This document shows positions 15,651 through 44,269 of a stretch of DNA of 64,000 nucleotides, one piece after another (the stretch's first letter is position 1; the number at the start of each line of letters is the position of its first letter). Position numbers and translations under genes: made by a program. The stretch is from positions 37,512,001 through 37,576,000 of the forward strand of contig CM119372.1 in assembly GCA_051294905.1 (NCBI GenBank). The letters run 5' to 3'. Origin of the DNA: Botryllus schlosseri. Taxonomy: Eukaryota. Under the pieces are notes generated by a model. It saw only the letters and a list, made by a program, of their open reading frames with translations. It made no database searches and was not told the DNA's origin.

Positions 15651-15768
15651 CTATCCTGCCTCTTGATTGGCCTGCTTTTTTGTGGATTCCGGTAAGTCTG
15701 CTAGCATAGACGGATTCGGTGAGCACCAAAAAGCACAACGCAAATTTTAATACCGTCAAGGCCAGCAT
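15651..15768 (-). CDS. Candidate first coding exon of a host gene encoding a secreted protein
   Basis: Acceptor TTATTACAG| at 15820, ATG at 15768, a signal-peptide-like MLALTVLKFALCFLVLTESVYA, and donor AG|GTATGG at 15651. Confidence 0.45.
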
Positions 15769-16137
15769 ATATTTCGTCAAAGAATTGCGAAATACAATAC
15801 GATTCTCTACGGACTCGTTACTGTAATAAGGCGTAACTATACACTGCTGCACAGCATACATGTACAATGTACATGTATAACAGTTGCGCCATCTATTTGC
15901 AATCGGAATGTCGCTCTCGACAAACACACGCTTAAAAGCGATTCATCGGAGATAAGCCGTGTTGATTATAAGTCAGTGATAGTCAGTGGTGGCTTTTGGG
16001 GTAGGCGAGGTAGGCGGTCGCCTAGGGCCCCCCTGGTTGATTTACGCGCTTTCGAGGGCCCCCCATCCTCGGTTCACGCGCTTTTTCCAACTATTTCTCG
16101 GGTTTACGCGCTTTTTTTCAAGTATTACCATTTTCTG

Positions 16138-19700: not shown

Positions 19701-21017
19701 GGATTGCGAAAGAGGCTTTAGTTGAATGAATCGGATCAAAACAGCATCGAGAAATCGTCTTCAAGTGGCTCATTTGGACCAGCTGATGCGCATAAAGTCA
19801 AAACTGAATACAGACGATGCCATTGACCTGGACAATGTATACAACCATTGGAGAGCTGAAAAGGACAGACGGGAAAATAAGGATTAAATGTAAAGGGAGA
19901 CTGCGATCTAGATACGACGGGGTCTTAAATTTGAGATAAATTTGTGAACAATTTTGGAAGCACTCATTTTTTTCAGAAAGGCACCGCACTCGAACTGAAG
20001 CCAAAACACCCTCAAAATACGCGACACAGCACACGTGCGATATCCATGATGTCTAGATTTATCGTTATTGCGCATGAATGCGTCTTAGCCCTTTGCGATC
20101 CCACAGATTCGCACGTGTGCTATGGTGCATATCCCGAAAATATTTCAGTTACAGCCGAAATTCGCTGGCTTTCTGAAAAAAAATGCCCTCAATGGCCGGG
20201 CGTCAAGTCAAAACCACATCATGTTCAGAGCGCAGTTCCCCTTCTTCACTCATAATGAGATTATTTGGTGCCATGCAATAGAACTAAATGTAAATGTTGT
20301 ACTGTGATTCTATCAATAAATAATGTGACTTGAATGGATACACGCACGTCTGGTTTTAAGCACAGGACCGTAACTGCCGCACCCAGACCCCCCGAGCTCG
20401 AAGGGGCCGCAAATTATTGAAATCAAATCGTGAATTAACATAAATCATGGAGTATGTTTTTGGAAATTTATGCAACTTTTTCAAAGAAGAAATACCAATT
20501 TGAAAGGTGTACGTCTTTTAGTTTAGTACGTTTGGGCGATTTCAATATCTTTTGACATAGCAGATTGGAGGTCACGAAATAGCATCAAGTAAGTAAGTCA
20601 TTATACCAACGGGTAGGCAGGCCTACGCCCGAAGATATTCAATTATTATTTAGGGGTCCTACCTTTTCCAACACATCTCACTCAATCAGGTTAACCGGTA
20701 AATCTGATTACGTGAGCAGAGACAGGATAAAAATTGATAGCAATATATACGCAAATTCCCGATGATATTGACCGATTTGATCATGAATTATAGATAAAAT
20801 TTCGCGCGTTTAGCCGGAACGCCCACTAAACGAAGACCGAACATAGATGACTAGTAGCAGCGAAAAGCGTGTAGGCCGAGGGGGGTCTGGGGCGCGAAGC
20901 CCCCCAGAAGTTTGATTTATCACCCTATAGGGGGCCTGGTTGCGCACTGCTGTCCAAGGGCCTGCGCAGTGAGTTGGCGTATTTGCGCAGACTCGTGAAA
21001 AATTAGAGGGAGCATTG
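16732..21017 (+). mobile_element. Full-length hAT transposon
   Basis: TIR CAATGTTCCCTCTAA/TTAGAGGGAGCATTG with a perfect 8-bp TSD ATGGTAGG. The empty site is seen in the paralog near 62037. Contains the transposase. Confidence 0.95.
17872..19887 (+). pseudogene. hAT transposase (ZNF862-like) with a single in-frame TGA at 19723-19725
   Basis: N-terminal CxxC...HxxxxxH finger and motifs VDESTD, SDGASVM, HCVAH, VRWLSR and SSADCERGFS. After the TGA the frame continues MNRIKTASRNRL...LMRI to TAA at 19885-19887. Confidence 0.9.
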
Positions 21018-24000
21018 ATGGTAGGCCTACTTATGTAGAATATTGTACTGTAAACGGTGCTCGATAATTGAATTTCTGTGCTTGTTAAAAGGGCCTACTT
21101 CGATTTTATGTTAATGAGGTCATATTGTAACATGGAATGAATTATTATTGAGTATATTATACTTCCTAGTGGCAGCAGTGTATATTTCAGTGCATCAAAA
21201 TTTTCCAGTATAAGTTTGTGAGATTCTACTTGCTGGCTCTTGATGCCAGCTTTCATATGATACCGTATGTTAATTTATAATGAAGCGTGTCCACACTGAG
21301 CCTGAATATCCGAAATATCAAAGGAAATAGTCATTTGAAAGCCAATGAAAGCATGTAGGCTATTATAGCCTATATATTGTTGTTTACTGAACCATTCTCA
21401 TGACTCAACATATTAGTTGTGAATTAGGCCTTTTCTAAATGGAAATCCATTCCTAGGGTTGTCATGATGGAAAATTTGTTCATTTCTTGTCCTCGGATTG
21501 GCAGCGTATTTTCAAAGCTTTACCACGCTATATGTGCACCCGGTGCAGTTAGTCAGAAAGTGTTTATGGTGTTGTCACAAAGCGTTTTTTTTTTATCACA
21601 GGTGGATGTCTTTTAATTGGTGGTGTACTACAGATAGATATGCAATAGATCTTGCATGCAGGAAAGTTTCTAGCGGCCTAATGCCTGATATTTATGCCTC
21701 AAAAATCTATGTCGATATTTGAAAGGTTTGAATGGCTATCATTGAGAAAGGTGTACGGAAGGCTACATATATTCAATTTGTTGTGAGGTTGATAATTTAA
21801 TATGATGTCACAGAAAAAGACCAAAATGTGACCAAACAATTTAGCAATGGAATCAATTTCGGCAGGCAGAGGAAAGAATTAAATGATCACAGGGCAAGTT
21901 TTTGCAACTTTATTTACAGCTTCTGGCAGCTTCCCAAATACTCGGAAGTTATGTAGTATGGTGTTTTAAGGTGTTTGGAGGAATCTTATATTGCAACTTT
22001 GCTTCATTTTTTCAAGCAACTTTTGGCAGCTTTTTGATTTTTCTTGCAACTCACGTTTTACTGGAAATATTTGGTACTTCATGTAAATAGATCGCTTGAT
22101 TATCACTGTCGTTTAAATTTGAGGTCATTTCTCATTTGACATACATTCAGGCTAGACCGCTGTAAATTATATTACTACTGGGTCAATTTTTTCAGGCTAT
22201 TGATTTTGTTGAAGGCGCCAACACTGAGTTTTGCGTCAGTGCCTTGGATATGCATCGATTCAAGTATCTCATACCTTAATAATTTCAAGAAATTTATCCA
22301 TGAATGTACCATTTTAGTGTAACTTTAGTGAAAAATAAATGCGACTTTTTACTTCTAACTTTTATGAAAAATATGTGCAACTTTCCACGGATTTGACTGC
22401 AATCAAAATTTGCCCTAAGATCAAGTGTTGCATAAGACAATTTTGACCATTACATTCTTGAAATGGGCTACCAGTTCAATATAAATATGACTCGGTTTGG
22501 TATTGATCACTCAGTTATATATATGTTATGTTGTAATTGGTAGCATCAGTATCTCCTAATTACTGCAGTCATGTATCTGCTACAATGCCGCGAGTACAGG
22601 CTAAATGTAAGTCAGGATCTCAGAAAAGGAAGTGGTTCAGATTTGGAAAGAAAGCGACAATGCAAATTTTGGACTACTACACAAATATTTAACCATCTAT
22701 GTCAGCTCAGGAATGTTCTGCAAAAATTGAGGATGATGCTGTTTTTCCACCAACTACAATGCCTTATAGACTTGAATGATGTAACAGTGCTTTCAAATAC
22801 GTATATTGTATTTGATTGTAGTGGTCTATTGTCTATGCTATTTGTGGCGTTTTAGGTTTAATCCAACCAGGCAAGTTCTTACAGACAAAAATATTTTTTC
22901 TATAACTTACAATTTTCTCATTAGTGCGTGTTGTTTCGTGTGTGTAACTGTTTATTTACAAATTGCGCTGCTACTATAGTACCGTATCTCCGTATACTTC
23001 AAAGTTTGTTGTTGTTGTTGTCATTGTGACAATGCGAATATCATGGTTTTTGATTTTGATTGTTGCGTCATACTTCGCCTTTTTGGTTTTGCTTTTAAAT
23101 CTATTAAAATCCCTTAGGTTGAAGTTAACTCTTGAAAAGAGGCACCCAAAAATTCTCTGAGTTCAATAAATATTATATTACAATGGATGTTGTTTTGAAA
23201 GCTATATTCTTACAGATCGTGCAACTAGCTCTTCACAGGTGATACCAGTACTGATGTGTTCCTGTGGTATTACTGGTGTTGTATCACATTGTCGCACATT
23301 TTGCTTCTATGCCTTATCATGCAACAAAATCTTCTTTGTAGCAAAAAGATAGGCCCAATCCAGCACCTGGCTGAAACCATGACGTGGTGTGCTGGCTTAT
23401 TACTAATGTCAGCCGACAGCTTTCTGGATTGATGTGGTCTATTTGGCGTGCAGTTGTCTTGTTATACTATTATGTCATGCTACATCCCATAATTTTTCTA
23501 AATAGGTAGGTCTCGAAACCAGGGCATGGTATGGTATGGTATGGAACGAGAAATTTCCATACTCCATACTTGCCTTACTCTCTCCGTACCATACTTGCAA
23601 TTTTCCATGCCATACCAACATTGTTCCATACCATACTTGATACATATTCCATACTTTCAAATACTTCAATATCATAAGTATAGTACCTTTTCTAGCACCT
23701 ATATTATTGATATTTCGGATGTCGTTATTGCTTAAACTAGCCATGATGCGAATCTTACTCCTGGTAATAGTTTTACAGAGTCTGTTTTGGTGAGGTTTAG
23801 TTCACAGTGGTGAGGTGCCGTGTACCTCTACTCGACAGCTTCCGCGAGCAAAATGAGATAGTCAGTAGATTGTTATCTAGGAATGTCCACAAAAGGGACT
23901 GGCAACATATGGCGCGCAACGAGATTTTGTCCGGCCCGCGACCAGTTTCCCGTCTTACATGATCATGTGGCCCGCGGTCCCAATCTGCCGAGATTCCCCA

Positions 24001-26999
24001 CTAGTTGCCTAAACATCAAATTTTAGTGACTGCATGTTATTATATAGGTCTGCGCACTGCGCGAGACTGGAGCTTACGGGTAAGTTCTTCGAAGCGAGAA
24101 GACTTGCATTATCGGCATTTACGATGTACTCAACCCTAATGAATTGATATTTTGGTAAATTTTGCGTAAAGGGCCTTGTAAAACGCGTTGAAACCTTAAT
24201 TGAGGATTGCACTGCGAGTTAGTTGATCAGAGAGAAGCAGACATGGCGGCGCCTTATGTCAATACTGTTCTCAAATCCACATTGTATTTTCATTATTGGC
24301 GAGAAATGGCTTTGAAGTGACACTGCTGTCGATAACATACATTCGGTTCACATATACCTAGTACCCTCTGTTACACGAAGAACACTGTTGGAAATTCGAG
24401 AGAATGGTTGTAAAAGAAGTGAATTATGACGAAGCATATAATTTATTGAAGTTTATTTGAACTTATATGGAACAGATGAATTTAACCCCACCAAAAATTG
24501 ACGTGTAAGCGTAAAGAAAATGGTAGAATTGTAGTGTAGAGTAATCTGAACTTGAGGGTATTAATGTGGTGTACGTATAACAAGGATAATTGCTAGAAAC
24601 AACCATAAATTGCCAGAAGAATAATTCGTCGGCCATTTTAAATAAAGCGGAGTTTGAGGTCGACAGCGGTAGCCTATGATTCACGGCAATCACATGTTTC
24701 AAAATAACGGTTAGCGCTTGATGCGATGCGAATTCAGGAAGTTATAAGGAGCCGAGGCCGAATCGTGACACTTAGTCATTTCTGCTCGTGCACGAAGTCG
24801 TTATAATGGGTCATTTATAATGATGAGGGAGATTAACTCGCACACGAAGCTGTGCCATTTTGGTAGCTGATAGAGCCGAAAACAATTGGTTAATGAGTAC
24901 GGCTGGTCCACGAACTGTGATTCATAAAGAATAAAGAGAGAATAACTTGTCACGAGCTAGGTCCGAAATTAATTACCAGCTATTAAGTAAAGGAAGTCTT
25001 AGTTTTTTTTGAATCAGAAACCCATATAATCCGCTGCGCAACACAGTCTAATTCAGTCCGATCTGGACTCGCAACACGGAGCAGAAGGAATTGAAGCTTA
25101 GAAAGGACACAGAAGCAAGGCGGCCATCCTTGCACCGAGGCTACGGCAAAGATCACAGCGCTGAGTTGAGTACTTTATAAATATTGCGTGTCCCATGTAG
25201 CGGTAGCTAAACGAAGTTGCAGACGTGGAAGGTTGGGGTTTTGCTCGGTTTTCTACGCGCTTGAAGTAGTGCGCACCAAGTCGCCTTGTGCTTGCGCCCT
25301 GTAAAGAGAAAATTTAGTTCACCGAATATGAGCCCGATTGTAAAAGGCCGGCCTGTGTTTTCTTATTCGATTGTCTTTGATCGTGCTGGTCCTTTCAGTT
25401 TGAATCTGAGCCCCTGGGCTCACAGATGCGAGCGGCTTATGGTAAAAGTTTCGGGGACAGCCCGTGGGCCGCATGCACCCATGCCTATGTTTCGGACGGG
25501 CCGCGGCGGAATTTGGAAATTTCAAGTGTTGAACAAAATATTTAAAGGCCACGTACCTTTTTAAATAAAAAAGGTTGAAGTTCGCTCCAAAGTTGCTGTG
25601 GAAATCCCGGCAAGTTTTGCCATAATATGGCTCTCGAAATTACAAATTGCGGTTGGCATATAGGCGATCCTGTTGGAATGTCTGAAGTACTGAGTTTTTT
25701 TTGTGTCAAACGTAAGATACTATCATAAGTAATTTGGATTTTTTTGACGATTGTGGGATTCTCGTTTATGGAGACCCGTCGAATGGGGCCCACTTGGAAT
25801 TGCTATATTGAATATCCCTATTAAAAATGCCGTGGCCCGCGGCACCCCCAAGGCTTGGGAGAGGGGCCCGCGAGCATGTCCGAATTGGAGCCTCTGGATA
25901 GAATAGGGAGGCGTGAAATGATAAAGTAATTAACTTGGTAAGGTAGGCCTTGGAGCCATGACGGCTACCGTAGGTGTGGGAAGGTGTCTGATTTAAGTGC
26001 ATGCTAATTCTAGTTTTTCTATGGCTCTTTCAAATATTTACCTCTGACAGGTACCCTGAAACGAGGGTCGTCCATCGTCGAATATTATTACCTATTCTAG
26101 AAACGTATTAGATATAAGGGGCGGCGGAATCAGGCTTAGAATTGCTGCGATAATTCCGGCACATACGAACGCGGCCGTGGACAAGGAACTCACACTACGT
26201 GGGAATTGCGATGAGATGGTATAGTTTCAAATCGGAAAATAAGCCAAGGTTGAATAAAATTTAATTCGTGTCACATTTTTTCCTAGGCTGGCAGCCTCCA
26301 GCGGGATTAGTCCCTAGATCAGAGCATCCGTCGCGGACTTGTGGACGGCGCGGGGGACGGTGTCTCTATTGCCACAGGTCCAAGATGGGCTCTGTTCCAG
26401 TAGTGATTAGATAGAGTGTAGTTAGGGTGGGATAGGTCCATTTTTAGATGATTGCTCTTTAGTAATCTTGGGCCCAAGATCCAGCACTCGTACCGATGGC
26501 AACTAAACCTTATGTGGAGTTGCTTCATGTGCCGTAGATCTCCCCGAGAAGCATTGCATAGCCCTCACGAGTCATGGCACACATCGATCGAGTCTAGACT
26601 ACGGCCTGGAAAAATTTTGTAGGAACGGAATTAGAATAGGTAGGGCGAAATCTAGAAGCGTAACGTCCTTGGTTCAAAAGGAACCCTAAAAACCCACGAG
26701 GGTGTATAGGCATAAGACCGGCCAATTCGTGGCTAGTAAGGAGGTTATGAGTGACGGTGAGGTAGTTTGTAAAATTAGCAATAATTGCACGAATTGCGAG
26801 CTTACAAGACCGGCCAGAGATTGATTAGTCTGGCCGCCTCTGTTGAGATGTGGTGACTAAAATATCAGTCCCGACGCAATATACCAGATCCACTAGTCGG
26901 TCACATTTTGGTAGGTCTTCGTACAATACTATAAATAAGCAAAATAATTTGAGATGGATTTATCAAAAGTAGAAACTTCCTACACGCTTTGCGCAACAT

Positions 27000-28191
27000 A
27001 CCGCTCGATTGCTTACCTCTAATAAGGTTACCTCTTTGTAAGAATGAAAGAAACACCTAAGGTATCAGATTGAGCCGGACTGCATTTGGCATTACGAGAT
27101 AAAATGTCCCGTGCCGTTTGCGCTCACAGAAAGATCGTCGGCTATGAAACCTAGGCATGGTTGAAGCTTTCGTTAATAAGGTGTCCAGGCGCCGAATAGT
27201 TCATCTTCGGACTGGCCCGCGACATAGCAAATAATTATCGCAAAAATGCGACATTGCCACGGTATAATAGTAACCTACATCGTCTAAATCAAATGCGTTA
27301 TGCCTACACGAGTGTATGAACTGAGAAATGAAATAGCAACTTTCCTCGAAAACACAAATATCGCCGGCGCATAGTCCCGCAATCGAAAATGGGTATCTCA
27401 TCTTGCTTTCCTGGTATATTTAACGCCACATCTGAACAAGTTTAATTTGCAACTCCAGGGGGAAAACAACTAAACGCGTGGGAGGTCGGGGCACATTTAA
27501 AACAAATCTGTAACTCTGGAAATGTAGACAGTACAAAGAAAATTGTGCTCACTTTCCTATGCTGGAGAAGGTACTGTGGTGCGACATTTAACTACTGAAT
27601 ACTCACCCGCGTTTCCGACATTCCTTCTCTACAAAATGAATTCTGACTATTCAGTGCTCTGTTTAATGCGGACGCCGATACCATTGCCTGTAAATTTCAA
27701 AAGGCCTTTCTGAAATGCGATGCAGTTGAATTGAATGACAAAATTTATACAAAGAGCTTATCGACAAAGAGTACGTTCTTGAAATTGGTCTTTATCCCAG
27801 CTTGAATAGTAATGCAAAAGGAATTGCATCAAATTTTGGAAGCTCGTACGCCTGTGAACAGTAGTTGCAAACAATAAAATTCACGAAGAGCAAGTTAAGA
27901 TCACGTATTTTTGACGTCCATTTTGAATAAGGGTCTGATTCTTGTTGCATTTGACTTGTTACCAGAAGTTGAAAACCTTTCTCAGAGCAAGCCGCGTCAA
28001 TTGTCACAATTGTTCTGGGCTGTTGAGGTGTAGAATACGTGTGTCTTCTGATGGATATGATTGGGATTGCAGCAATGTAGGATAATATACCGAAGTGAGC
28101 GTAGAATATAGTACTAGGGAAAATTTCGGCCCGCCAAAAAGTTGTACACCTGAAATTTGGCCCGCGGCTAGCAAAAGGTTGCCGACCCCTG
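27000..28191 (+). pseudogene. Decayed hAT transposase (SPIN/GTF2IRD2-like) with its right TIR
   Basis: KWVSHLAFLVYLTPHLNKFNLQLQGE near 27390-27465 and FGSSYACEQ...KSKLRSRI near 27835-27910. Ends in AAAGGTTGCCGACCCCTG. The left boundary is approximate. Confidence 0.75.
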
Positions 28192-28700
28192 CTGTAAGTA
28201 TCATTTGACTTGATTCGAGGCATTGCGACTCTGCACTTTTAGACCAAAATTTGTTGAGTCCACCATCAAAATTTATGCTGGATGGGGGAGGCAAAAAAGG
28301 GGTTGACCTGCAATGGCCTGCATTGACGATGTAATTTTCGGATCTTTATTTGGAAAAATAATACGACTTGTAATATGGGCCAAGTTTTCGTCCCGCTAGT
28401 TCACAATTGACTAACCTGAAAATATTTGCACACCCCTGATTGAGCTAGGTCAGGGCCAGCCAACCTGTGGCCGCGGGAAGGTTTTGAATGGCCCGCGACG
28501 TAATTTCTTAAATTACGAATTGTGGTCAAAAACGGATCCCACAGAATGTGATGGTTATAGCTATTCTGGAACACAGTGCAACTGTATAAAAAGTGCTAGT
28601 CGTTTTGAATTCAAATAAAGGGAACGCTGAAGGACAGAGAGGGTCCGAATTATATGACAATTGCTAAAGAAAAGAAAAACTGACTTATGGATGATATCAG

Positions 28701-29831
28701 CAGAGGTGGTCAAAGTAGTCAAGAAAGCTACTCAAGTAGGAGTAGAAGTAGCGACGGAAAAATCTACTCAAGTACAAGTAGAAGTACTTCTTCAATAAAC
28801 CACCTAAAACTACTTGAAGTAGAAGTAGAATTAACTAACTTTATATCTACTCAAGTAAGTAAGTAGTTTTGAAAACAGCCTTAATTCGTTCGCATGGACT
28901 GTCAAAAGCTGCGAATTGAGCTATGCGGCACGTGCAGGGAGCTTGATTCGTATTGATGCATCCCAGGAGGTATCAATTTTCAACATAATAAGTATTGTTT
29001 CGCATCATGGGATGCAAATTATAGTACTGATATGAAAATGCGATGCTTATCTTTTGTTTACTGGAACACCCCGTTTTTAGAGAATATCATGGGATGGCGC
29101 CCTACCCCATATTATAAGGCCACAAGTTTAGGCGAAGAGCAATACGTAGAAAATGTATCGGATACGGTTACATCACTTTGCGTGATTATTATACGTTAAT
29201 TAAAATGCAATACAAATACCACTACTAAAAAGCGGAGAATATATTTCCTGTATTTTGTCTACAAAGCTTAAAAGGTCATCTGCTAAAACAGGTGTAACGT
29301 TCAAAAAAGCTGGATTTTTCAGATCATCAAGACACGTAAGGGGCTGCTAGATTACAATATGATAGGCAATTGCTAGATCGTGAAACGGTAGTTTCAAACG
29401 TTGTGGTGGGCCATATTTACTGTGGTGAAATATTTGATAAAGACGACAATGCGGTGTGAGAGGAACCAAGCAATCCGGTACCTAAATTACATTCACTGAT
29501 ACTTTCACGAAAACATATTTGTCACTCCATTACTACTATGCGCGAAGCGCAATAAAATTCCTGGGCTTTACTTGACTCTTATGAATATTAAATGTTGGTA
29601 CTCCATGAAAACAGCTGCGGAATTCCTCAAGTTATCGTTCGTATTGGGGAATTAGACTACTTCTACTTGACAAACTGAAAATAGCGAAAAGTAAGTAAGT
29701 AGATCACAAAATATTACGAAGTAGAAGTAGAAGTAGAGAAAATCAGATCTACTTGAATAAGTACCAGTAGTAGAGGAAAACTACTTGAGTACTTCCAAAA
29801 AGTAGAAGTACTTCGTGACTGACCACCTCTG
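28701..29831 (+). mobile_element. Complete hAT-type MITE (CAGAGGTGGTCA family)
   Basis: Perfect 12-bp TIR and perfect TSD GATATCAG at 28693-28700 and 29832-29839. It sits inside another hAT remnant that begins CAGGGCCAGCCAACC at 28451. Confidence 0.93.
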
Positions 29832-30754
29832 GATATCAGTCATATTCTGTTGTAATTCGAATGGGTGATGACATATGAAATCCTTCGCGAATGTTGCCGT
29901 TTGTTCTCAAACATGCGCGATATATAGTCCTAGTCGCCATGGATGAAACAAAGAAGGCTACACCATATTAACACGTTTTATCGATAGTATTCAAAACGGA
30001 TCATGCTTAACGGTATTGATCCATATCTGCAGAAACCCGCTCGAATTATCAATACGAAAAATATGTAATTCATTTACGCGAAAATTTGAGTAGAACAGTT
30101 AGTATAGTTTAATTAAAGTCCAGAGATACTAATGTCTAGAGATATAAAAGCAGGGAATGACGAGTGCTTATGCCGCGTTTAGTCAATCAGTATTAATAAT
30201 ATTTTCATCATTTCAAAACACCACGAAACTGCGATCCAGGGCAGTCGCACTAACTATCCTGTCCCGTGTAGTAATTAACTGAGACAGATTTGGCGAGATG
30301 AAAGTGTCTAGTTGAAAGTGAGCCTGACTCCAGACAAGATTTGAATATGCCGAAAAACACCCTATTATTTCGTGTAAGCTTACATGGGCCGAACTAGGAC
30401 CAAGAATTAGTGAGGATGACAAATAATCACTAGCAGCGATAAAGTTTCCGTAGGGTATGTTGCGGCGTTGTAAATGTGTAGTATCGCAGCGCGTCAATAA
30501 ATATGTGCCGTTCGCTGTGCATATTCATGCCGACTATAAGGCGGGTGCCTTTGTACCTAGATATTCCATGGTTTTGTCAGCATTTTAGAGCATTCTTGTT
30601 TAGTGTTTTTGAGGACAATTTACCTCGCTGACGTAAGATGAAACGCACTAACTCAAAAATAGCTTCAGAAATATACCAACTTGTCGCATTAAGTAATAAC
30701 AAGGACAAAGTCAAATTGGATTTATTATTGGTACTGCAAGCAGGCGACTCGAAC

Positions 30755-30950
30755 CAGGCTTGGACAACTAAATAATTCTAGTTGTCTAATTTCACTGAAT
30801 TAGAACGAAATGCAAGTAATCTAATTCTAATCTAATTTGGATAAAGCTGCTTAGCTCTAATTCTAATTTTAACATAATTTGGAAAAGCTGTGTAGCTCTA
30901 AATCTCATCTAATTGGGAAAAGCTGAAAATTTTCCAGTTGTCCGGGTCTG
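30755..30950. mobile_element. Small MITE
   Basis: CAGGCTTGGACAACT...AGTTGTCCGGGTCTG with TSD ACTCGAAC/ACTTAAAC and internal TCTAAT/AAAGCTG repeats. Confidence 0.6.
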
Positions 30951-31230
30951 ACTTAAACAGAAAATATATTTACCTATATCTGAACGTCACAAGCGCTACT
31001 AGTCCGGCAAGGTCAATACACTCAATACCATTCTGATCAGGAAGTCAATGCCCCTGTGGAGACGCTGTAAATGGTCATGGAGCAGCGGGTCAGTTCGTTG
31101 GCTACTATGTCCATTTTGTGTTGTCACATATATCGGGCCTTGTGTCGATTTTACGTCGTAGCGCTGAAGCGCCAGTATAGTTGCCGACTATCTAATCGCA
31201 AACAACAATGTCAGCGGATTTCAAATTGCT

Positions 31231-31406
31231 ACATCGATACCTTTGGTGCTAGACCTTGGAGAAGATCGACTAATATTCCAAAAGTTTAGGGCTACTATTG
31301 TGATTAATAAACATTGATACCTTTGGTGCTAGACCTTGGAGAAGATCGACTAATATTCCAAAAGTTTAGGGCTACTATTGTGATTAATAAACATCGATAC
31401 CTTGGT
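31231..31406 (+). repeat. 80-bp tandem duplication (about 2.2 copies)
   Basis: ACAT(C/T)GATACC...GATTAATAA repeats at 31231 and 31311, with a partial third copy at 31391. Confidence 0.9.
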
Positions 31407-34099
31407 CACTAACTAGGATTAATAAAGGAGTATAATGTAACCGGAATTACTAGGCCTATAACATTAGGAATACTTCAGGCCAGTACTGCTAATATAAAGA
31501 CCTTAGAAAAGTAACCCATGGTTGAACTTATCCACACATTCGTTTTTCGAAACTGATGTGTCGATGATGGAAAATGACACTAGCCTAAAACCCGCTTTGT
31601 CCGCGTATTCACTTTACGAAGTGAATGCGCCTGACGAACGCCATTTTGTCGCATCGCAATCATTACGTGTACGAACTATGAAAGTTTACTGTATTGGCAA
31701 AAATCAATCTGCAAAAGGGTATTTTCATGTGAGGGTTTACTATGACGTATTATTGCAACGTGACGCCTATCTTTCTTATATTGTTCAAGTACTGCATTTA
31801 CCTAATCTTTGACATCTACCATCATATTCCTTTAAGATGACGCTAACATGTCTTAGATATAGGTATAAGTTATGAACATTTAATATGAGAATAGTTGGCT
31901 GTTACTGCGGTAATTTAATAGCGAATACTACAACTGTAGGTATTAATAAGGCGTCATAACTGACCCCGCCCCTATACTAGTGTCAGGACCCTTCACCCCA
32001 ACGGGACAAAAGTTTGAAAATTTGATGTGTAATGGACCATAAGACAATAGTAACATGGGTATTTAAAGACCTCTTGGGGTAACGCATTGGAGCATATGTG
32101 AGTTCGAAATTCGCGATAAGCCTAGTCTATTGCCTATGAAGCACGATATATACGAATGAATAAAAAAGCTTAAGCACACCAATACTGGAGATTAAGGAAT
32201 ATAGCATGATTACAATTGGGATATTGGTTCACATATGACTATTATAAGTGAGATGGTATCATTTTGTGCTTATCTGGGACTGTGTCGTATGCATGTTAAG
32301 TGTTAGCTATACCATCAGTTGCTTTACCAAAAATGGCGCCACCATTTTTTCATGTATGCGAGCTTTTACAGTGAGCCGAAGTATGACTGATATATGTATG
32401 CATATCTATGCCATGTATGATGTCCACATGAATTGTACAATCAGTTGTAGTATCCAATTATTGCATATAAAGACGACATCGGTGCGTCCGCTAGTTTCGG
32501 CGAACTTGTGACTCTATGCCAAGTAAATCCGCCAGTCTGAAACAGAGCCCCAAACGAAGCATCCAGTAGCAGACTATATCCAGAAAACCGGACATTGACG
32601 GAGGCATTGCGAAAGGGTTTGACGTCTTTTGAGATTGAAGGGTGATGTTCCGATGTCCCTCTGAAAAATCTTGACATGCTATTGATTGGATCGGCTGCTT
32701 GCTGCAGTTGCAAAGTATACAGAAATAAAGCAGCGCGATGAAATGGGTGCGACTGCTAACCGAAATTGCAATGTATACATAAATGAAGCAGCTCGATCAA
32801 ATTTGCTGGAATAGCTCCATAAAGCCGATGAGCTAAAGATGGAAAGAGCCAAGAACATGGAGGTATTGCATTCGGGATATCGTTACAACGAACCCTCAAC
32901 AAACCCTGCGTTCTATTGGACTTGGAATGCCCGATCTCCGAATCGACAGCACGCAAGTAGGCTACTTGATGATCCTAAGTAGTAACGACTCAAACAAGGG
33001 GTCGGTTCCTGGACTAATTGCAGTTTGATATCTGCATCTGGAAGACTGGGGAACTCTTATAAACAAGGTGGTCGGCAAATTGGTCAACTTGAACTCTGTG
33101 TGGTATTGTTTTTTTGTGGCATCGATTGGCATATTTTTTGTATATTATATGCATGTATATTGTCGGCAGGAAATACCGTCACATTTATGGTGTAAACACA
33201 CCTTGGAGTATTGAACTGTTATTAATCGTGCATGAATATGAATAGGTTAAATCTTGACTCGTGTTGTGATTGACGTATGTTCCGTGTGCCAACTTAACCG
33301 AGTTTTGCATAGATACTTCATTGCTGTCTGCATGATAATTATTGGAGTATGTTGGTTGTATTAAGCCAAGGGGCTTGTCTATTGTATGAATAGTTTGAGC
33401 CGCTGGACCTTCCAAGGTCACTGCTTCGTTCGATCAATCTACAACCAATGCTTCAATCAACGTCGACAAAACCGGGTTGTATAAGGGGTGTGGGAAAATG
33501 TGGAAAAGCCAGGAGATGGGGTTGAGCTCTGTGAAGTAAATCGAACCAAGTGTGGAATACTTGCATGGCAAGCGCCATGAAGCTACACTATAATCAAATG
33601 GAGGCACCAACTGAACTTCTTCCAGGGCTGAACGTCATTTCTTGGCAATTTCAGTGGACGGGGGAGAGTCTGAAGACGAACACATCGATTACCTCCTTAC
33701 TATCTGCGAACGCCAATCTATGAAAAGAAAGGATCGTCGAAGGATCACTACTGGGGTTTTCTGCGCCGACACGGGAAGCGTCCTCAAATTGAAAAACGTC
33801 GTAGAAACCTAAATACCCGCCAAGCTGGAAAGAGCGGCAACCTATAGACATGAAACTACGTGATATAGGTGACTCCTCCCACGTTGACTCCTTAGTAATA
33901 ATCAATTTCGACGGACTGTCGGCTCCATTTGCGATCGAGAAAGGAGACCTTTCGATATTGTAGGACTAAAATGGATTGATCATGTACAACAATTATCAAA
34001 CATAGCGACTGAATTTGAATCTCCGCCTAATGCAAACGAAGAGTTGTCTTTAGTAACGCTTCATGACGAGATCTCGTGTGATCAGCGGGACGGAACCAA

Positions 34100-36308
34100 A
34101 GTCGGAAGCAGTCTTCGCGACACTGTAACCGATGATGGGTTGATGGAAGCTGCAAATCAAATAAGCGTCGAGTCGGCACGTTGTCTGTGTCGCCGCAGGC
34201 CGTTGCCGCTGGCGCAAGTGTCGAGATGGTAATCACCACTGGCGCGAAATGTGTCGAGTCAGGAATCCCTGCTGGCACCAATCATAAATACGCCGATCTT
34301 ACGACGGCAACTGTCTTACCTTCTTTCCCAAAAGGTCAAAAAAATATGGGAAATCCCTAGTGTTGGGTCAGGTAGCCCCTGCTGGCACTAGTCGAGAAAG
34401 TGTCGGGTCAGTTAGCACTGCTGGCACTAACTAAAGATGTGTCGAGTCAGGAATCCCTGCTGGCACCATTAATGAAGACGTCGAGCGCGGAATCCCGGCT
34501 GGCGTAAATAAGGACCTGCACGAGAAAACTGGTCCTAAATGCTCTCGTGGATGCACTTGTCCGAATAACTGTAATGATTCGGCACATAGATGCATGACGA
34601 CAGCCACAGTCATGAGTACTACCCCAAAAGGTTTAAACAAAGCAGCTATTGCCGGTCAACCGGATACACGCCCGGTCATGTCCGGCAAGGAGTCTGGGGA
34701 TTTTAAGATGCACGTCTCCCCATAAACGGGCCCCGGCGGCGACCGAATCCGCCGGCGTGACGGTAGGCGTGGGCACACGCCGAGATCAGAGGTCAGATTG
34801 AATAGGTTGGGAATCCCCGCTGACAACGAAGAACCTCGCCCTCTCTCCACCAACACCAAAACCCCGTTCATCACGAGATTCGCATTGGGCCAATAACTGG
34901 CCCAATTACTATGTAGCCTAACCTTACAACAAGACACCAGTCCCAGCGTGAAGACGGAACTCGAAAGTCTCTGTGCACAATCGGTAGCACTGGCGAAACT
35001 GTCATACAAACCTCCTGACTTTTGACTGGCCTTGAAAATATCGCCATTCCTGAAGGAGTCTTGACAGCCGTTTATGATCCATTTTCTTCCGAACTTGATA
35101 GCCTGCGGGGCCAACTCAGCGCCCCCCAATCCATGAAATACCAATGCGACATCGGACGTAATGACCCATCGAATAAGCCTTTCGTTTCTGGCCCTTATAA
35201 CCCGACGCTGGAGGGTCAGGCGAAGGCACTAAAGGAAGCAATAGATATAATACCTTATTTTGGTATTATTAAACAAGGTTTTGCCGAATGAAAATTGGCT
35301 ATTTTTGTTGTTCATGAGAAAATGAATGAATTACTACAAGACAAGGCGAGTCGCACTCGATAGTAGCAAGACGGACGTCAGAGGTAAACCCCATCCCAAG
35401 AAGTGTACATGATCGCTTACTACAGTCCGACGTGGTTAACTCCAGCGGCGAAAGACTATGATCCAAGCACTGCAGCGCTGAAACATCTGGCACCCCTAAC
35501 AATACAATGACGAATGAAAGCGAGACTGGTGCAAGTAAGACGATCGAAATCGATGGCTAACAACAAGGGGGAGTATAAAACTGTCAAACCAACTGATGCG
35601 ACTTATGGGAAGCAACAGTTGCAAACTCTTCGCGCGCGAAACAAAACCGACGGAATGACGAAAATCATTGGTGAAACACCTACAACGACGCGAGTGCATC
35701 CGGTTACCACTGCGAAGGCTCTGCAGAACTCCACAGAAGACGGCAGGACCGACATCGGAACGGACTACCAAAACCCGGACCACAACCGTAAGGTAAGTAC
35801 CGAAACAACTGTTTTGTATTCAACAGGAGACGACAAAGACGACTCGTCCCCGAGGACTGTCGAACTAATGAATACTACCTTGGAGTCAACGATGGCTGGC
35901 GCATCACCTCTGCCTGGGCAGAAAAACCAAAGGTTGGGAACACCCTAACCTGGATATTCCCGACTATCAAGAACCCCCGTGGGGAAGACAACCACAGATT
36001 TCGTTGAATACAACTATACACGATGGCTGCACGAACTGGTGATGATGGAAGGTGGATATAAGGTAGGAGAATTATCCTCGATCGATAGGGTTATTATGGA
36101 AGGTGCAAAGCTGATACCTATCATGGAACCGGTGGTTGTAATATTGGTGGTAACAGGGTTGATGGCTCTGGTGATTGTGTTATGGGTAGGTTGTATAAGG
36201 TGTCGTCGACGTAGAACCTTGAATCTTCTGGGGAACACGAGGAGACGTAACGGAACAAGTCAATGGATGGCGATAAGAGTAATACGGAACACAACGGAGA
36301 ATGACTAA
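34100..36308 (+). pseudogene. Decayed ORF(s) for a type I membrane protein with a Thr/Ser/Pro-rich, repeat-containing ectodomain
   Basis: GTCGAGTCAGGAATCCCTGCTGGCAC (VESGIPAGT) repeats at about 34250-34510 and 34810, a Thr-rich frame at 35514-35948, and a hydrophobic segment VVVILVVTGLMALVIVLWVGCI followed by RCRRRR. Confidence 0.5.
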
Positions 36309-39276
36309 ATCCGAAGGTAAGAATTGGTGTTTAAGATTTAGATGTAAATACGAGATTTTCATAGTTTGTTATGGGGAAGTAATGAAGTGTAACGTTATAA
36401 TTTTGGTAAATCGTTAAGAAAAGTGGTGATAGGTATCATGCGTACAAAACAAATCCTTTGGCGCATCGTTTATGATGAGTCCCAAGCACTCCGTATTTCA
36501 CGTAATGGGCGTTAAAGGAAAAAATGTGAGTCATGGTAAGATAGCTATGTAACGAAGCATAAATGAATGGCAGTGCATCGTTTATAATAGGTATCAAGTG
36601 AATTACTTTACGTAATGGGCGTAAACGGAAAAAACTGAAACCTCGTAACTAGAAATCTGCTGAGTCATGAAATATCAATTCGAGAGAAATATAAAAGAGA
36701 AAGGTTGACGTGTAAAAGTACTTAGTCAATAAAGTGATCACCATGAACGGGTAATGTTGGTGTATAGTGCACTAGTTCCCATACATTCAATAAATACGAT
36801 TTATTCCTTGCATATATGGGCGAATAATTGATCCATTCAGCAATCCGGCTCGCCAAGTACTTAATTTTCCAATATCCGGCCCGCCGACTAAAGAAGTTGC
36901 ACGCCCCTGCTCCATAAGAATATCATCGCATTTCCGGTACATCGGCATGAGGCACATGCAAGTTTGAAGTAAATACTCGCAAAATAATTTATAATATAGG
37001 CGCACCCATGAAATATCCCAGCTGCAGGCGATCAATACTGCAGCGATCTGCGCGATTATTAGTACAGTATTTTGTTGGGGTTAGTGTGGCGAGAATTTCA
37101 AACTAGATCTACCCCACTCCCTGATCTATAATCCTAATGCCTAATGCGAGAGTGTTTGAGATATAACCAATGAGATGTAACCAATAAGATATCTCGGTAT
37201 GTAAATAGTATAAACATGCGCATAATGTTTTATAAGAAATGTAATCATCAATCAATCACATTGAGCATCAAGTACGTTGCATTATGATTGCTTGTAAGCT
37301 CTCGTCGCTCAAGGAATGAGGTAGTTGGAGTAGCCAACATTACCAAATACTGCGTCACATGATAGACTACGCTCGGAGACGTCGTGTCTAGACTCAATAG
37401 AATATATATCGGATAAACATTACTGTTGTCATTATTACATCACAAAATCATGTCATTCCAAGTGCTCGTAAAACCGTTGCACAAGCGTGTATTTGATCCT
37501 ACACAGCGTTCATGTTCACTAGGGTTGTTCAGATTTGAAAAATTGTCAGGAAACTTCGACCATTGTGATCCAAATGATGGTTTAGTGCATAAAAACACTT
37601 TTATGAGCAATTTTGGTCATCTTCATCGCGATCTTCCTTTTCCTCAAGGCCCCCAAAGATGCTGAGGTCGTTTCTCCTTACTACAGCTGATACACCAGAG
37701 TGTTTACGGTGACGTAGTGTTCTGTAGTGTTGACCGTGTAACCAGTTTGTAACTTTTGTGAAGTTATCAGTTGAAAACGGTTGTGTAGAAATGAGAAATT
37801 GCAAGGTAATGTATTTGTTTTTAAAACTGTACTTAAATATCGTCTTATACATGTCAGATGTATCTCCGTTTTCTTGTTCAAAACCTGTCTGTCGTGTTCA
37901 TGGGAAGCATTTATTAGTTGCACGGGTGACACTGGTTTGTTATGGATCGTACCTCGAAGGAGCGCCGTTTGGTTGCAAAGTCGTGAACAAATGCAGAGAT
38001 TTGCAACTAGTTTTTAGGCAGTAAATGTTATTGAAAGGTGTATGATATGTAATGTCAGTAACATTTGCCTCATTTTTAGTTTATCTGTAAAGTAACGAGT
38101 TATCTCATTTGATGGTAAAGTGCAATTTAGTAGATGAAGAATGCCTAACACAAAGCGGAGAAAGGTTCTGCCGGATCCACCAAGAACAAGGTCGAAGTCT
38201 GGTCACTATTTGAGCGCTGAGTGTATAAGTCACTCAAAGTTACCGACTCTACGTCAGGTTCTTGAATCTTTGCTATATCTGAAGGAAAACGGCCCTAATA
38301 CCACCAAAACGCAGGAATTTCTTCTTCAAACTGTTCAAGAGGTTACAAGAATATATAATGACAAGAATATATAAGGAAGGAAACGCAGAACATTGTTCCG
38401 ATGCTGTGAAAAGTTCATGAAACTTGAACTGTGTTATATTAAAAAGAACATGGCTCGGTCAAGTGACGTTGAGGGAAAGCGCCAAGCATTTTGTGATAAA
38501 CTCGATAAGTTGTGCGACATTGCGACGCAATATCACTTGTAAAAAGAGATTCGCAGTTGTCACCATCTCAGAAAAACGAAGACATCGAATTTTATGAGGA
38601 CAAATAGTATTCTCGTAGCGCACAACTCGCAGGAAAATATAAGACTTTGAGAGAAGCCAGGCACAGATTCCAACTGAGATCAGTGACGAACCTGTTTCAG
38701 CATATGCGAGCACAAGCAGTGATGAATTTGTCACATTAATGTCCTCGTCATTTGAGATAGAAACCAGTACTCCACCCTCTGATTATGATGCTGCACAATC
38801 AAATATCCTTCACGCTACTCCTATGCTACTTAGGGATTTCATACAGGCATACGGAGGGAATATTGACGCCTTTGTGCAATACATATCAAGTATAAATAGA
38901 CATATAAAGGCTAATCTACCCAATCATGCTGCTATACACTGGGATGGAAAGTTGACAGAAGACAGATTTGGAACAAACTATGAAGCAGTGGCTGTGATAT
39001 TGTCTTCTTATCCTCTGCATACAGATGAAAAATTACCTGGAATTTTTGATAATAACAATTGTCGCAAGTCACGAAAATGTTATAAACGTGCTGATTATTT
39101 TCTGCCATAATCTGCTTCATAAGTTTGATTATGCAAAATGTTCTCACAATAAAATTCATTGAGTTTCAGAAACATACATTACAAGAGCAAGCGTAGTATC
39201 ATGAACTTGTTGCATTTTCACAATTCTGCTTCGTAGGTACCCTTGTCATATTCCACACTATGACAACCTTTTAGAC

Positions 39277-40565
39277 CAGTGGTTCCCAACCTTTTTCGAC
39301 TCATCGCCCCCTTTTCAAAATCCAGACCGATCATCGCCCCCCAAATATTGGGAACCGAAAAATGGGCATACAGACTGAAATAACCGGCGAGTTGACTAAG
39401 AAAAAGGGTCAACTTTTCGGCTCGACCTCGAAATTACATTTTTCCAGCTAAATTTTGGTGAGTTGACTAACAGAAAAGGTAATTTCTCCGACTTGATTCC
39501 AATAGGACCGTAACGGCACTTCGTCATCCCCCACCCCAATACGTTGGTCTTGAACCTCCTCCATAGGGCGATAAAGCAAACTTCTGCACCCCTCAGACCC
39601 AACTCCCCCGATACCTCTTCACCGCTACTTCTCAGCACAAATTTTTGTTGTCTTTAGTTGGTCAGCTTAATTCGCGCGAAGCGCGAAAAATTTCTATCAT
39701 TCATGATTGAATCGGTCAATATGATCGGGAATTGCATATATATTGCTGTCAATTTTTTATCCTCTCTTGGCTCATGTATTCAGATTTACCGGTAAAGCTG
39801 AGTAAGGTGTCTTGGAAAATGTAGGGCCAGTGGGTATAATTACTTCGTTACGTAATGACATTTCGTGGCCTGTCTGCTGTGTCAAAAGATATTAAAATCG
39901 CCCATACGTACTAAACTAAAAAACGCTCACGATTTCAAATTTGTATTTCTGCACTGGCAATTAATTTTTCTCTGCGAGATGGCATTTTTTGTGGGGTTTT
40001 GATTGCCAGGACAGAAACATTTGGCGCCCATGGACAATTAAATCTGTATATGTATATAGTATTTATATCAAAGTTGGTCAGCATAAAGGCAGTCCTTTTC
40101 CGCCAAGGTTTTCTCATTCTGGCACACTTCTCAGAGTCGCATGTTACATGGCCTGAAACTTTATATGTATTGGTGCGATAATGGCTGACGCCGAGATGCC
40201 CATTTCTATAACTCATGCGTATTATTTCTTGGAGGAAGGGTAACCAATAAGCAATAAATATGTGACCATGAAATGGCGCGTAGCGCGAAATTATTTGGAA
40301 AAAGTTGCCTTAATTTCCAGAATAATACTTTATTATTTAATTAATGTTAATTCGCGAAAAAACTGTGGGCCCCCCATCCCAATTGAGGGTTTGGGTGTGG
40401 CAGTTATGGTCATGATCGCCAATATAGCCATTTCAACGCGCAATCGCCCCCCTATCGCCCCCTTCGTCCATTTTCGCCCCCCTATCGCCCCCTTGGCTAT
40501 TTTCGCCCCCCTGGACCGACAAATCGCCCCCTGGGGGGCGATATCGCCCACGTTGGGAACCACTG
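39277..40565. mobile_element. hAT MITE (CAGTGGTTCCCAAC TIR)
   Basis: Perfect TSD TTTTAGAC at 39269-39276 and 40566-40573, with ATCGCCCCC subterminal repeats. Confidence 0.92.
39503..40414 (-). mobile_element. Probable nested element with (C/T)AGGACCGTAAC termini
   Basis: TAGGACCGTAACGGCAC...GTGGCAGTTATGGTCATG. The body is the reverse complement of about 41374-42190. TSD is degenerate. Confidence 0.55.
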
Positions 40566-40882
40566 TTTTAGACTGATTGAACAGGACGGTCCTGCGTTTT
40601 CGTCGTCTTCGGGCAGTAAGTGAACTGGAATATTGAGCAGTGAACTTGACTCTTGCTCTTTGCAGGACGGGTACAACCCTTCTCCGCATTGTTTCAGATA
40701 TTCTTCAACTAAAATCCGGTCCTTTATCAAATTAGATAACTCATTACTTTACAAATGAACTGAAATTGGGGCGGAGACACTGGCATTGCACATTACATTC
40801 CTACTTATCCGTTCACCAACGTTAACGGAGTAAAAACAACCTGGAAATGCATGCATTTGTTTCATTCATATAGCCTGACCAG

Positions 40883-42354
40883 CAATGTTCCCTCTAAGCT
40901 GCGCACGTGCGCAAATGCGCAGTGCTGAAGCGATCTCTGCGCACAGAAAATCTAAGTTGCGCACAGAAAATCCGAAGTGATGTTTTTTTTAAGTCGTTGC
41001 GCACTGTTGTCCAAGGGACCACGCAGGCGTGCAAACTCGTGAAAAATTAGAGGGAACATTGCCAGGGGCAAATAGTGTTACCGCTGAAGTCTTACACCGA
41101 GCTACAAGTGCGGCCCACAAAGGTAAATATTGCGCTCCGTGAAGAAATGAGACTTTGCCATCACGAGCGCCTACCGAACAATCTTTTCTTTTAGTATGGT
41201 CTCGTACGCGTGAGCGATACTGATATCACTTCAATAGCGCAATATTTTCTGGGAATGGCGAAATAACATGGTTTAACAAAGTTATAAATAACAATGGGCT
41301 AGCTCGAAATTAATCTGCGAGAAACTAGCGCATAGTCTTCTCCGCGTGTCATGAACATTGCGTAAGATTTCATCAGGACCGTAACTGCCGCACCCAAACC
41401 CTCAATTAGCGGGCCGAGAACGAAGGGAGCCCAAAATTATTTCGTGAATTAATATAAACCATGGTGTATTTTGGGGGAATTTTTCAAAGTATTTTTCGCG
41501 CCGCGCGCGAATTAATTTTGTCAAATATCTTGATTATTGGGTACCCTTCCCACAACAAAAAATACGCGTGATTAAGAGGAATGGGCACTTAGGCGTCGGC
41601 CATTTCCTTGCCACGAAGCACCAAGACATATGTAGTTATAGGCTATGTGACATGCGAACTTCGAGAAGTGCGCCAAAACGATCAGCTGCGAGAAAACCTT
41701 GGCCGAAAAGGACTGCCCTATATGCTGACCGAAAACTTCGATTCATATAACTTTAATTGTCCATAGGCGCGTAAATGGCTGGCGCTGAATGTTCATGTGC
41801 TGGCGATCCGAGTCCCACAACAAGACAAATGCGATGTCGAGAGAACATTATTTGCCAGTAGAGAAATACCAATTTTAAATCGTGTTCGTGTTTTAGTTTA
41901 GTACGTTTGAGCGATTTCAATGTCTTTTGACATAGCCGATTGGAAATCACGAAATAGCATCATGTAACGAAGCCATTATACCAACGGGTGCGCGCGAAGA
42001 TGTTTAATTAATATTTAGAGGACCTACCTTTTCTAATACACCTCACTCGAACAGCTTTACCGGTGAATCTGATTATGTGAGCAGAGAGAGGATAAAATGG
42101 ATAGCAATAGATATATGCTATGCAATTCCCGATCATATTGACCGATTCAATCATGAATCATATAAAATTTTCGCGCTTCGCGCGTTCAGCCGAGACAACC
42201 ACCAAACCGGCCCCCGATGCAGATGATAAGTATCGGCAAAAAGTGCAGAGCCCGATAGGGGGGTCTGGGGGGCTGGTTGCGCACTATTGTCCAAGGGCCT
42301 GCGCAGTGAGTTGACGTGTTTGCGCAGACTCGTGAAAAATTAGAGGGAACATTG
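40883..42354 (+). mobile_element. Non-autonomous relative of the 16732-21017 hAT
   Basis: Perfect TIR CAATGTTCCCTCTAA/TTAGAGGGAACATTG and perfect TSD CTGACCAG. Confidence 0.93.
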
Positions 42355-44269
42355 CTGACCAGCTGTAGCAATGGGCCTGGAGATTACAACACATGTACCA
42401 GAAGGTCGCACTGGCATATGTAGTTCAATACCTTTGTCAAAAAAGATGTATTACCTTGATTTTTCTCACCTATAGACGGTCGTTTTCAACTGCAAACTTC
42501 ACTAACGGTACAATATCACCTCGGGGCTCTGCATTACAATAAGAGCTACGTATAAATAGTCTGGGGAATCCCCAATAATTAGGAGAATTGGCCTCTGATA
42601 TTTGGGGGCTTTGAGGAAAAGGAAGATCACGACGAAGATGACCAAAATTGCTCAAAAAAGTGTTTTTGTGTACTAAACCATCATTTGGATCACAATGGTC
42701 GAAGTTTCCTGAGAATTTTTGAAATCTGAACAACCCTAATGTTCACACATAACAAAAGCGATCGTATTCCGTGAACAGCGAACAACGTATGCTTCTTGAA
42801 GCTTGCACAGATCACGATAAAATGTATAAAACACTAAAGTATGGAAGTATGGAAATGTCGTTCCATACCATAGATTAAAATCTTCCATTCCATACCATAC
42901 TTGCATTGTTCCATATTCCATACCAAAATATCGATCCATACCATACCATACTTCCATACCATACCATACCATACCATGCCCTGCTCGAAACACGCCATAG
43001 TTCACTTGAGTCACTTGTTTTCGAATATGCCAAGTCGTTTATTGTACTGTGGCATGACATTATAATTATTTGATATTATTTGATATGCTGAAAGCTTTAT
43101 CATGAAGTACAGACAAAGCACTATCGGAACAGTGTATACGAGGTGCAGAACAATAAAAGTATCATGAAGTGTTAGGGAGGGGGGTCTGGGGGGCGAAGCC
43201 CCCCAGAAGTTGCGATAATTTAGATAAGGAGAGCCCCCCCCCCCCCGGAAGTATCGCCTAGGGCCCCCCCCAATCGTAAGGCCACCACTGATAGTCGATG
43301 GTTAAAGTATTAGTGGAAGTGAAAAATGCCGGTCTGAAAAGTGCGTGAGTCGGTAGTTCTCAAAGGTAATTTCGAAATTACATAATACATAACTACGAAT
43401 CGGTTTAATTTTTGAAAATATATCCAATTACCTGGTTTATGGGATATTAGATATGACATATAAAACATATGAAACTACTCCGTACTTTACAAATCATAAT
43501 TGTAAATACGTCTAAATTTGACCAATACTCGGTTAAATAGAATTGGAAGTACTTTAAAAACATATCCCACTGGGTACGTAGGCTACTCGACGTAGGCAAG
43601 ATCTAGTAGCATATTAAGAGAAAGTCGAAGTGCACTGAAGATAAATAAGCACCGAGAATTCTAGCGATAGGTCGGGTTGATATTGAAATGAACCAAAGAA
43701 ACGTGACTTCCAAAAAATATAGTTAGCGTCAAGAACTAAATTCAGGTAGACTCAAGAGAAGCTGCTTTATACCTTATGGTCTTTGGTAGCTACTGATCGA
43801 CTTGTGAAAATTTTATTCCTCAACTGGATTGACTTGTTCACTATTGGTCTATTGCACACTTCTTGTCCATTTGCGTATCAATGTGAATGGAAATAGTAGT
43901 CTTTTCTGTGGTCGATAGGTTATATTATTACTATTGCAGATATTGCAGTGTGCCGAACACTCTAAGGTTTGGTCGATACCTTCGACTTTCATCGCAAAAT
44001 CCTCACAAAAAAAACATTTATAAGCTTGCTCATTTTAAGTTACTAGATTCATAGAATACCAGAAGCAAAACTTTACGTGCAATGTAATAAGGATAAATTG
44101 ATCAATCATTTGTAGCGTGTAAAATCTTTCTACATGGTTCAATCGAGTTTATTGCACTAACATAACTTCGATAGTGTTATCCGAGAAAGTCAAACTTCAG
44201 AGAGAAAGTGTACAACACAACACGAGGTACATCTACAAGTACAACACCACAGCACTGTGACGAGTAGAC

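Follow-up and report, generated by a model that had tools for sequence, protein, structure and literature searches.

What kind of coding sequence occupies positions 34100-36308 of the window, the whole 64,000-nt stretch of DNA analysed here? The window is transposon-rich, with ~40% GC and few long open frames. A first-pass annotation, made from the letters alone, read this interval as one decayed mucin-like type I membrane protein, similar in architecture to viral attachment or envelope glycoproteins or to a captured host mucin. Our analysis partly confirms the observation of a membrane protein and partly supports its interpretation. The viral-glycoprotein-like architecture applies to the 3ʹ end, which has a single-pass membrane build in a virus-like context; it does not apply to the 5ʹ two thirds, which are pol. 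The features of the remnant, as positions in the window, are:

33747-34025, + strand: decayed aspartic-protease domain of pol with a CADTGS motif, in two frames (tblastn against L002 pol)
34026-34896, + strand: linker between protease and reverse transcriptase (RT), of low complexity and frameshifted, with 39-nt VESGIPAGT-type repeats at 34218-34523
34897-35330, + strand: N-terminal part of the RT (homology to L002/P0001)
35382-35495, + strand: RNase H scrap (L002 match at 35394-35489)
35511-36125, + strand: Ser/Thr-enriched, cysteine-free stretch, probably disordered, with four sequons, an internal stop at 35946 and no signal peptide
36126-36191, + strand: transmembrane helix (Kyte-Doolittle 3.13; pLDDT 79-95 over residues 201-230)
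36192-36308, + strand: Cys/poly-Arg juxtamembrane motif and short tail (~38 residues) with the stop at 36306-36308 (translation)

A decayed pol gene

Judged by homology, 33747-35495 is a decayed pol made up of a protease remnant, a repeat-rich linker, the RT N-terminus and an RNase H scrap. The relatives used for comparison all come from outside the window; they are proteins P0001, P0002, P0006, P0008, P0011 and others, together with the metagenome loci L001 and L002. In a tblastn search of 7.8 kb, the protease matches L002 pol in two segments, one of 43 aa (44% identity) and one of 51 aa (27%), with a joint E of 1.6e-11; the relative P0006 scores 20.4 bits against Pfam RVP, just below the cut-off of 20.7. 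The RT start matches L002/P0001 with 51.5% identity over 99 aa and 34% over 41 aa (E 6e-30), and the RNase H scrap matches L002 at 47% over 32 aa (35394-35489, E 6.7e-5). When 1.84 billion representative proteins were searched with the frame 35019-36305, its stops written as X, all 11 matches fell on query residues 4-118, which correspond to the RT start, and the 11 matched proteins are pol polyproteins or fragments thereof. The earlier suggestion that this is not ordinary DNA-transposon cargo was right.

Much of the gene is gone. Across the whole window, a profile of the relatives' RT core found nothing below an i-E of 0.84, and the best match, at 0.84, lies elsewhere. The scrap (i-E 3.4e-5) was the only match below 0.4 to a profile built from RNase H-Tpt1 of the relatives, and no remnant of the Tpt1 part was found anywhere in the window. 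Together, these searches indicate that ~300 codons are missing between the RT start and RNase H; the second also indicates that ~275 codons of pol are missing after the scrap. What is left contains stops and frameshifts throughout and encodes no working enzyme. Two integrase readings were considered and rejected: 33200-33600 has no Pfam integrase match, and the peptide PYNPTLEGQ (35200) aligns with the relatives' RT start, again with no Pfam integrase match.

The peptide repeats that were taken for part of the membrane protein do exist, as 39-nt units at 34218-34523 encoding VESGIPAGT-like peptides. However, the seven copies are split over three frames (1, 3 and 3), and the frame of the membrane anchor has 17 stops in 34100-34896; hence, no one protein spans 34100-36308. 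The repeats sit in the linker, which is flanked by collinear protease and RT matches. Ser+Thr+Pro make up 25–27% of 34202-34700, compared with 20–29% of the protease-RT linkers of eight relatives. The linker is variable and of low complexity in the relatives too, and that of P0008 is also built of tandem repeats. The interval 34100-35495, which had been read as a glycoprotein ectodomain, is thus pol (linker, RT start and RNase H scrap), and the lesson for annotation is that a protease-RT linker may be mistaken for a mucin domain.

Relatives of the decayed pol

In the relatives, the domain order of pol is protease, linker, RT (RVT_1), RNase H (RT_RNaseH) and a Tpt1/KptA-type domain (PTS_2-RNA), with the fuller protease-RT-RNase H forms in P0011, L001 and L002. 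Of the relatives, P0002, P0011 and L002 extend as far as the pol stop; in all three it comes right after the Tpt1/KptA-type domain, and none of them has an integrase within pol, although one could lie in a separate ORF. The Pfam score for PTS_2-RNA is 42.5 bits in P0002, above the cut-off of 26, and 22.3 and 23.4 bits in P0011 and L002, below it; the C-terminal domain of L002 matches solved Tpt1 proteins at E 2.8e-5. P0002, P0011 and L002 (3083-4699) share 35–45% identity with one another, and P0011 lies on a 246-kb contig, which could span the element in full. Since L001 and P0002 are 98% identical, we count them as one lineage.

Upstream of pol, L001 and L002 carry a gag with a CX2CX4HX4C knuckle (zf-CCHC) that overlaps pol in another frame. 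The L001 gag resembles retrotransposon capsids in language-model (Atlas) features (0.93), whereas the structural likeness is weak (TM 0.45–0.51). The RT motif of the relatives is YIDD/YMDD. Searched at E ≤1e-20 against 8,000 candidates, P0002 matched, apart from its own sequence, only a single integrase-bearing pol, the nearest of that kind found, with 26% identity.

Two of 217 pattern matches in metagenomes are family loci (L001 and L002). Viral contigs, with 56 and 167 pattern matches, and prokaryote genomes, with 88, yielded no further locus, and none of 124 short candidates matched the Tpt1 region of P0011. In the literature searched, mostly open-access papers, there is no report of a Tpt1-bearing or Merlin-ended retroelement. 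The integrase-less pol that ends in Tpt1 apparently represents an undescribed retroelement lineage. The copy in the window is dead, and its own contribution is the membrane-protein tail; the family is of more interest than the copy. The remnant points to animal retroelements that have Tpt1 at the place in pol usually taken by integrase, as in P0002, P0011 and L002, none of which comes from the genome of the window.

The 3ʹ membrane piece

The interval 35511-36308 lies directly 3ʹ of the RNase H scrap, shares its strand and frame, and encodes a single C-terminal transmembrane helix with a positive-inside tail. There is one stop in the coding frame of 35511-36305, while the other two frames have 19 and 11; 5 of 5,000 shuffles were as open in any of six frames. 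Since the frame is open beyond chance, we take the 3ʹ piece to be genuine coding sequence that has decayed. The pol-frame stop is at 35508 and is followed by an ATG at 35514. The GC content of the piece is 47.5%, compared with 49.1% for the pol remnant and 35.8–40.3% for the flanks.

Most of what the first-pass annotation saw in this piece stands. Its hydrophobic segment is 36126-36191, with a 19-residue Kyte-Doolittle mean of 3.13; no other of the 2,378 stop-free stretches found in the six frames of the window reaches 2.8. CIRCRRRR follows the segment, with the stop at 36306-36308. The sequons were located at 35640 (NKT), 35727 (NST), 35871 (NTT) and 36012 (NYT), and four sequons were equalled in 7% of shuffles. 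The term “mucin-like” overstates the composition: in the 206 residues that precede the helix, Ser+Thr come to 20%, and Ser+Thr+Pro reach 33% in 35649-35945. Short MEG/MEP repeats (family D9) precede the helix.

A single-sequence fold model of 35514-36305 has a pLDDT of 49 and a pTM of 0.23; only the helix is confident, and pLDDT is below 50 over residues 1-158. There is no signal peptide, the best 11-residue hydropathy in any frame of 35496-35800 being 0.65. The 206 residues before the helix contain no cysteine and no furin site, and a search for Env-type features upstream of the anchor found no fusion-protein motif. No homolog of the membrane piece was found among 4,986 long candidates or among the 11 matches from the 1.84 billion representatives; Pfam, PHROGs and PDB sequences gave none beyond weak matches to PDE8 (E 0.009) and MLANA (E 0.21). 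We rejected a gag reading of 35598-35750 (E 0.06) as chance, since the conserved continuation is absent and the DNA score is under that of the best shuffle. The sequence of L002 stops 77 bases past its pol stop, and no sequence of a relative shows the post-pol region. The post-pol bases of L002 have a faint DNA likeness to 35503-35570, at rank 28 of 1,276 tiles.

Evidence from sequencing runs

One contig of run X1 covers 34439-36316 with 16 other letters and one gap; the joined form of pol and membrane piece is therefore present in that run. Hence, the joined structure is no assembly artefact of the window, unless X1 is the window's own source. Among the 15 joints listed, none lies within 34100-36308; 409 further joints exist.

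Summed contig depth over 31172-36515 is 45–288 in X1 and 5,700–17,800 in X3, versus 10 and 411, respectively, at 38186-38500. In X7, which carries another species label, it is 35–191 versus 34. The excess suggests several copies in organism A, summed contig depth itself being no copy number. Pieces in X3 go down to ~86% identity.

No RNA run is listed among the sequencing runs that hold the sequence. Raw RNA reads from one run, of which ~6% was read, gave a depth of 0–1.5 over 34178-36181 at 80% likeness. At 32174-33843, the RNA depth in X24 is 3–13, on both strands, and exceeds the 0–1.5 over the pol and membrane parts.

Origin of the membrane piece

What is a membrane anchor doing at the end of a truncated pol? 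The explanation that we favour, by a little over even odds, is that the locus is what remains, after two deletions, of a dead copy of an undescribed retroelement without integrase, and that 35511-36308 encodes the stalk and anchor of a surface protein belonging to that element. An element of the family would have inserted and lost most of its RT and the end of pol, either by template jumps during reverse transcription or by later deletion at the DNA level. The second deletion would have joined the 3ʹ end of one of the element's downstream membrane genes to RNase H. The piece would then comprise a glycosylated stalk, an anchor and a positive-inside tail, most likely from an envelope/attachment-type or accessory surface protein. 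The remnant would have decayed; it is enclosed by nested hAT-type DNA transposons, which may have carried it along as a passenger when they were copied.

Several observations are consistent with a surface protein of the element itself. The pol homology is collinear over three domains, and the relatives have a gag-PR-RT-RNase H-Tpt1 architecture. The piece lies directly 3ʹ of the RNase H scrap and in frame with it, which is the position of env in retroviruses; its GC content is near that of pol and away from that of the flanks; and the X1 contig carries the joined form. On the other hand, no search found a homolog of the piece, and the post-pol region is seen in no relative. The signal peptide, cysteines, furin site and fusion-protein motif are all lacking before the helix, although the upstream part of the gene may be deleted. 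Furthermore, the window has no LTR, own inverted ends or target duplication for the element, and no remnant of gag, integrase, Merlin or Tpt1. The likeness of the post-pol bases of L002 ranks only 28th among the tiles.

An alternative explanation, which we consider unlikely, is that the pol remnant captured a host membrane-protein mRNA by template switching during reverse transcription, in the manner of a transduced oncogene. Capture of an mRNA would account for the piece being intronless. It would also fit a piece that stands, in frame, in place of the 3ʹ half of pol and has neither a viral homolog nor a fusion motif. Host proteins are often single-pass with a Cys/poly-Arg tail. However, there is no host homolog among the 1.84 billion representatives, and the GC content is like that of the element and unlike that of the flanks. 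The low RNA depth (0–1.5, in ~6% of one run) gives no sign of an expressed parent gene, which counts weakly against capture.

It is similarly improbable that the piece derives from the element but not from an envelope gene. It could be a small accessory membrane ORF (type III, with no signal peptide) after the pol stop, or a sequence unrelated to any envelope, with GTN-rich codon repeats that translate into an apparent helix. The ATG at 35514 that follows the pol-frame stop at 35508 without a hydrophobic leader is what such an ORF would have; the MEG/MEP repeats before the helix also argue for this explanation, as does the likeness to the post-pol bases of L002, which is in the top 2% of tiles. 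That likeness was spotted post hoc, however, and is not significant, and the combination of helix and positive-inside tail is unique in the 64 kb. Moreover, a luminal part of ~200 residues without a leader is unusual.

A single decayed mucin-like gene of 2.2 kb, for which the repeats, sequons and helix are indeed all present, is ruled out for practical purposes by the RT and RNase H homology at 34897-35495 (E 6e-30 and 6.7e-5) and by the position of the repeats, which fall in three frames of the protease-RT linker.

If 35511-36308 is indeed part of the element's own surface protein, what might the intact family be? We raise, as a possibility that we doubt more than we believe, an undescribed lineage of enveloped animal reverse-transcribing viruses that lack integrase, have a Tpt1 NAD-dependent phosphotransferase at the end of pol and use a Merlin-type transposase to integrate, with 35511-36308 as the stalk, anchor and tail of the attachment glycoprotein. 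Surface glycoproteins combined with integration by a DNA transposase would, if true, be a new genome-entry route for a reverse-transcribing virus. The same reading would raise the question of what role an enzyme that modifies RNA or DNA phosphates has in reverse transcription. Our guess is that Tpt1 in the intact family might serve replication by repairing or capping phosphorylated ends of RNA or DNA; the analogy is with the roles of viral KptA proposed in the available text of PMC9503650.

Comparison with known systems

The relatives resemble Metaviridae (Ty3/Gypsy), a family that includes the env-bearing errantiviruses and the Tor elements, in having a retrotransposon-type capsid gag with a CX2CX4HX4C knuckle followed by PR-RT-RH. 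They differ in having Tpt1 where Metaviridae have integrase after RNase H, and the copy in the window differs in that no LTR was found, as against LTRs with a 4–6 bp target duplication. The P0002 RT scores about equally against the Ty3 RT (83.1 bits, E 1e-22) and the CaMV RT 8r0s (81.7 bits), and these scores do not demonstrate that the relatives belong to Gypsy.

Tor elements of the tunicate Oikopleura are described, in the accessible part of PMC4402516, as carrying, behind pol, a third ORF whose product has a transmembrane domain at its C-terminus. In the Env of Tor3b/4b, seven cysteines are conserved, and both a furin site and an F-X-G fusion tripeptide are present (PMC4402516, same part); in contrast, cysteines and a furin site are absent from the 206 residues before the helix here.

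Caulimoviridae share PR-RT-RH without integrase with the relatives, as far as the available text of PMC11363490 describes them. They infect plants and have a movement protein and circular DNA. The relatives and the window copy have between them a probably animal host, Tpt1, a membrane protein and a long linker between protease and RT; neither a movement protein nor a circular genome was seen.

Troyka/Kuafuorterviruses, as portrayed in the accessible portions of PMC12440569 and PMC11673190, are animal and largely marine, occur in ascidians and, like the relatives, have PR-RT-RH outside the classic families. The same portions give them LTRs, an integrase, a CX2CX8-10HX4C knuckle, IADD/VADD/LADD motifs and no envelope. 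The relatives instead lack an integrase in pol, and their motifs are CX2CX4HX4C and YIDD/YMDD. We therefore rejected identity with Troyka/Kuafuorterviridae, as the knuckle, the [ILV]ADD motif and the integrase of these viruses are not those found in the relatives.

The C-terminal domain of the relatives' pol is of the type of the Tpt1/KptA RNA 2ʹ-phosphotransferases (PF01885). KptA is present in two RNA-virus polyproteins, one of them from a tunicate-associated nidovirus, according to the available text of PMC9503650, and that text contains no report of KptA in a retroelement. The accessible part of a review of retrotransposon accessory domains (PMC6338049) has no occurrence of KptA, Tpt1 or phosphotransferase.

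Teratorn, a piggyBac-herpesvirus fusion (described in the available parts of PMC5601938 and PMC5822658), sets a precedent for viral integration by means of a DNA transposase. Teratorn joins a herpesvirus to piggyBac, whereas here no transposase of the element was found in the window.

Surrounding DNA

Two further features bear on the setting of the remnant:

23520-42983, strand not assigned: outer hAT-type inverted-repeat element, 19.5 kb with nested insertions, which encloses the remnant (ends and target duplication)
31231-33640, strand not assigned: upstream DNA with a depth like that of the pol remnant, where gag would be expected from gene order (depth)

The ends of the outer element match at 20 of 20 inverted bases, starting CAGGG, and are flanked by a perfect 8-bp target duplication; CCATA repeats are present at both ends. 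The enclosing elements are presumably hAT, a label that we take from the CAG/TAG end signature. The outer element is one of a nest of five inverted-repeat elements with perfect 8-bp duplications (23520-42983, 28701-29831, 37520-42738, 39277-40565 and 40883-42354). For the remnant itself, no convincing inverted ends or target duplication were found among 16 candidates, the best having 12 of 18 with 7 of 8. The window has no LTR or long direct repeat around the remnant, which could reflect loss in a damaged copy. Neither a Merlin or other transposase of the element nor an integrase gave a Pfam match in 92 stop-free stretches of at least 55 residues or in 15 read-through frames, and decay could hide one. 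There are 94 such stretches in all, and the remaining two were Pfam-scanned separately.

No gag profile matched in the window at E ≤5, and 31231-33640 has no Pfam match. On the + strand of 31480-33200 there is a frame with several cysteines, sequons and a 101-codon open stretch (31507-31809), with no match in Pfam or PHROGs; it could be another decayed gene of the element. At 31231-31403, a near-perfect 80-bp tandem duplication lies near the point at which read depth falls to that of the remnant, and this is possibly an end of the element. One repeat ends at 30235, and a search of the window did not find its continuation. Also inside the outer element, 24345-27300 is a 3-kb stretch of 44% GC whose repeats elsewhere in the window are at most 70 bp long and which has no six-frame Pfam match.

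Other mobile elements lie farther from the remnant. A piggyBac-type transposase remnant in two frames occupies 12688-14601 (DDE_Tnp_1_7, E 1.2e-44), with 50-bp inverted ends that are 84% alike. At 17863-19725 there is a hAT-like transposase with a 620-codon open frame, for which zf-C17orf113 and DUF4371 score below cut-off. The presence of piggyBac-type and hAT-type transposase sequence suggests that the window is from an animal. Long imperfect palindromes at 2708-3334 (85% self-complementary) and 55069-55431 (77%) are probably MITE-like.
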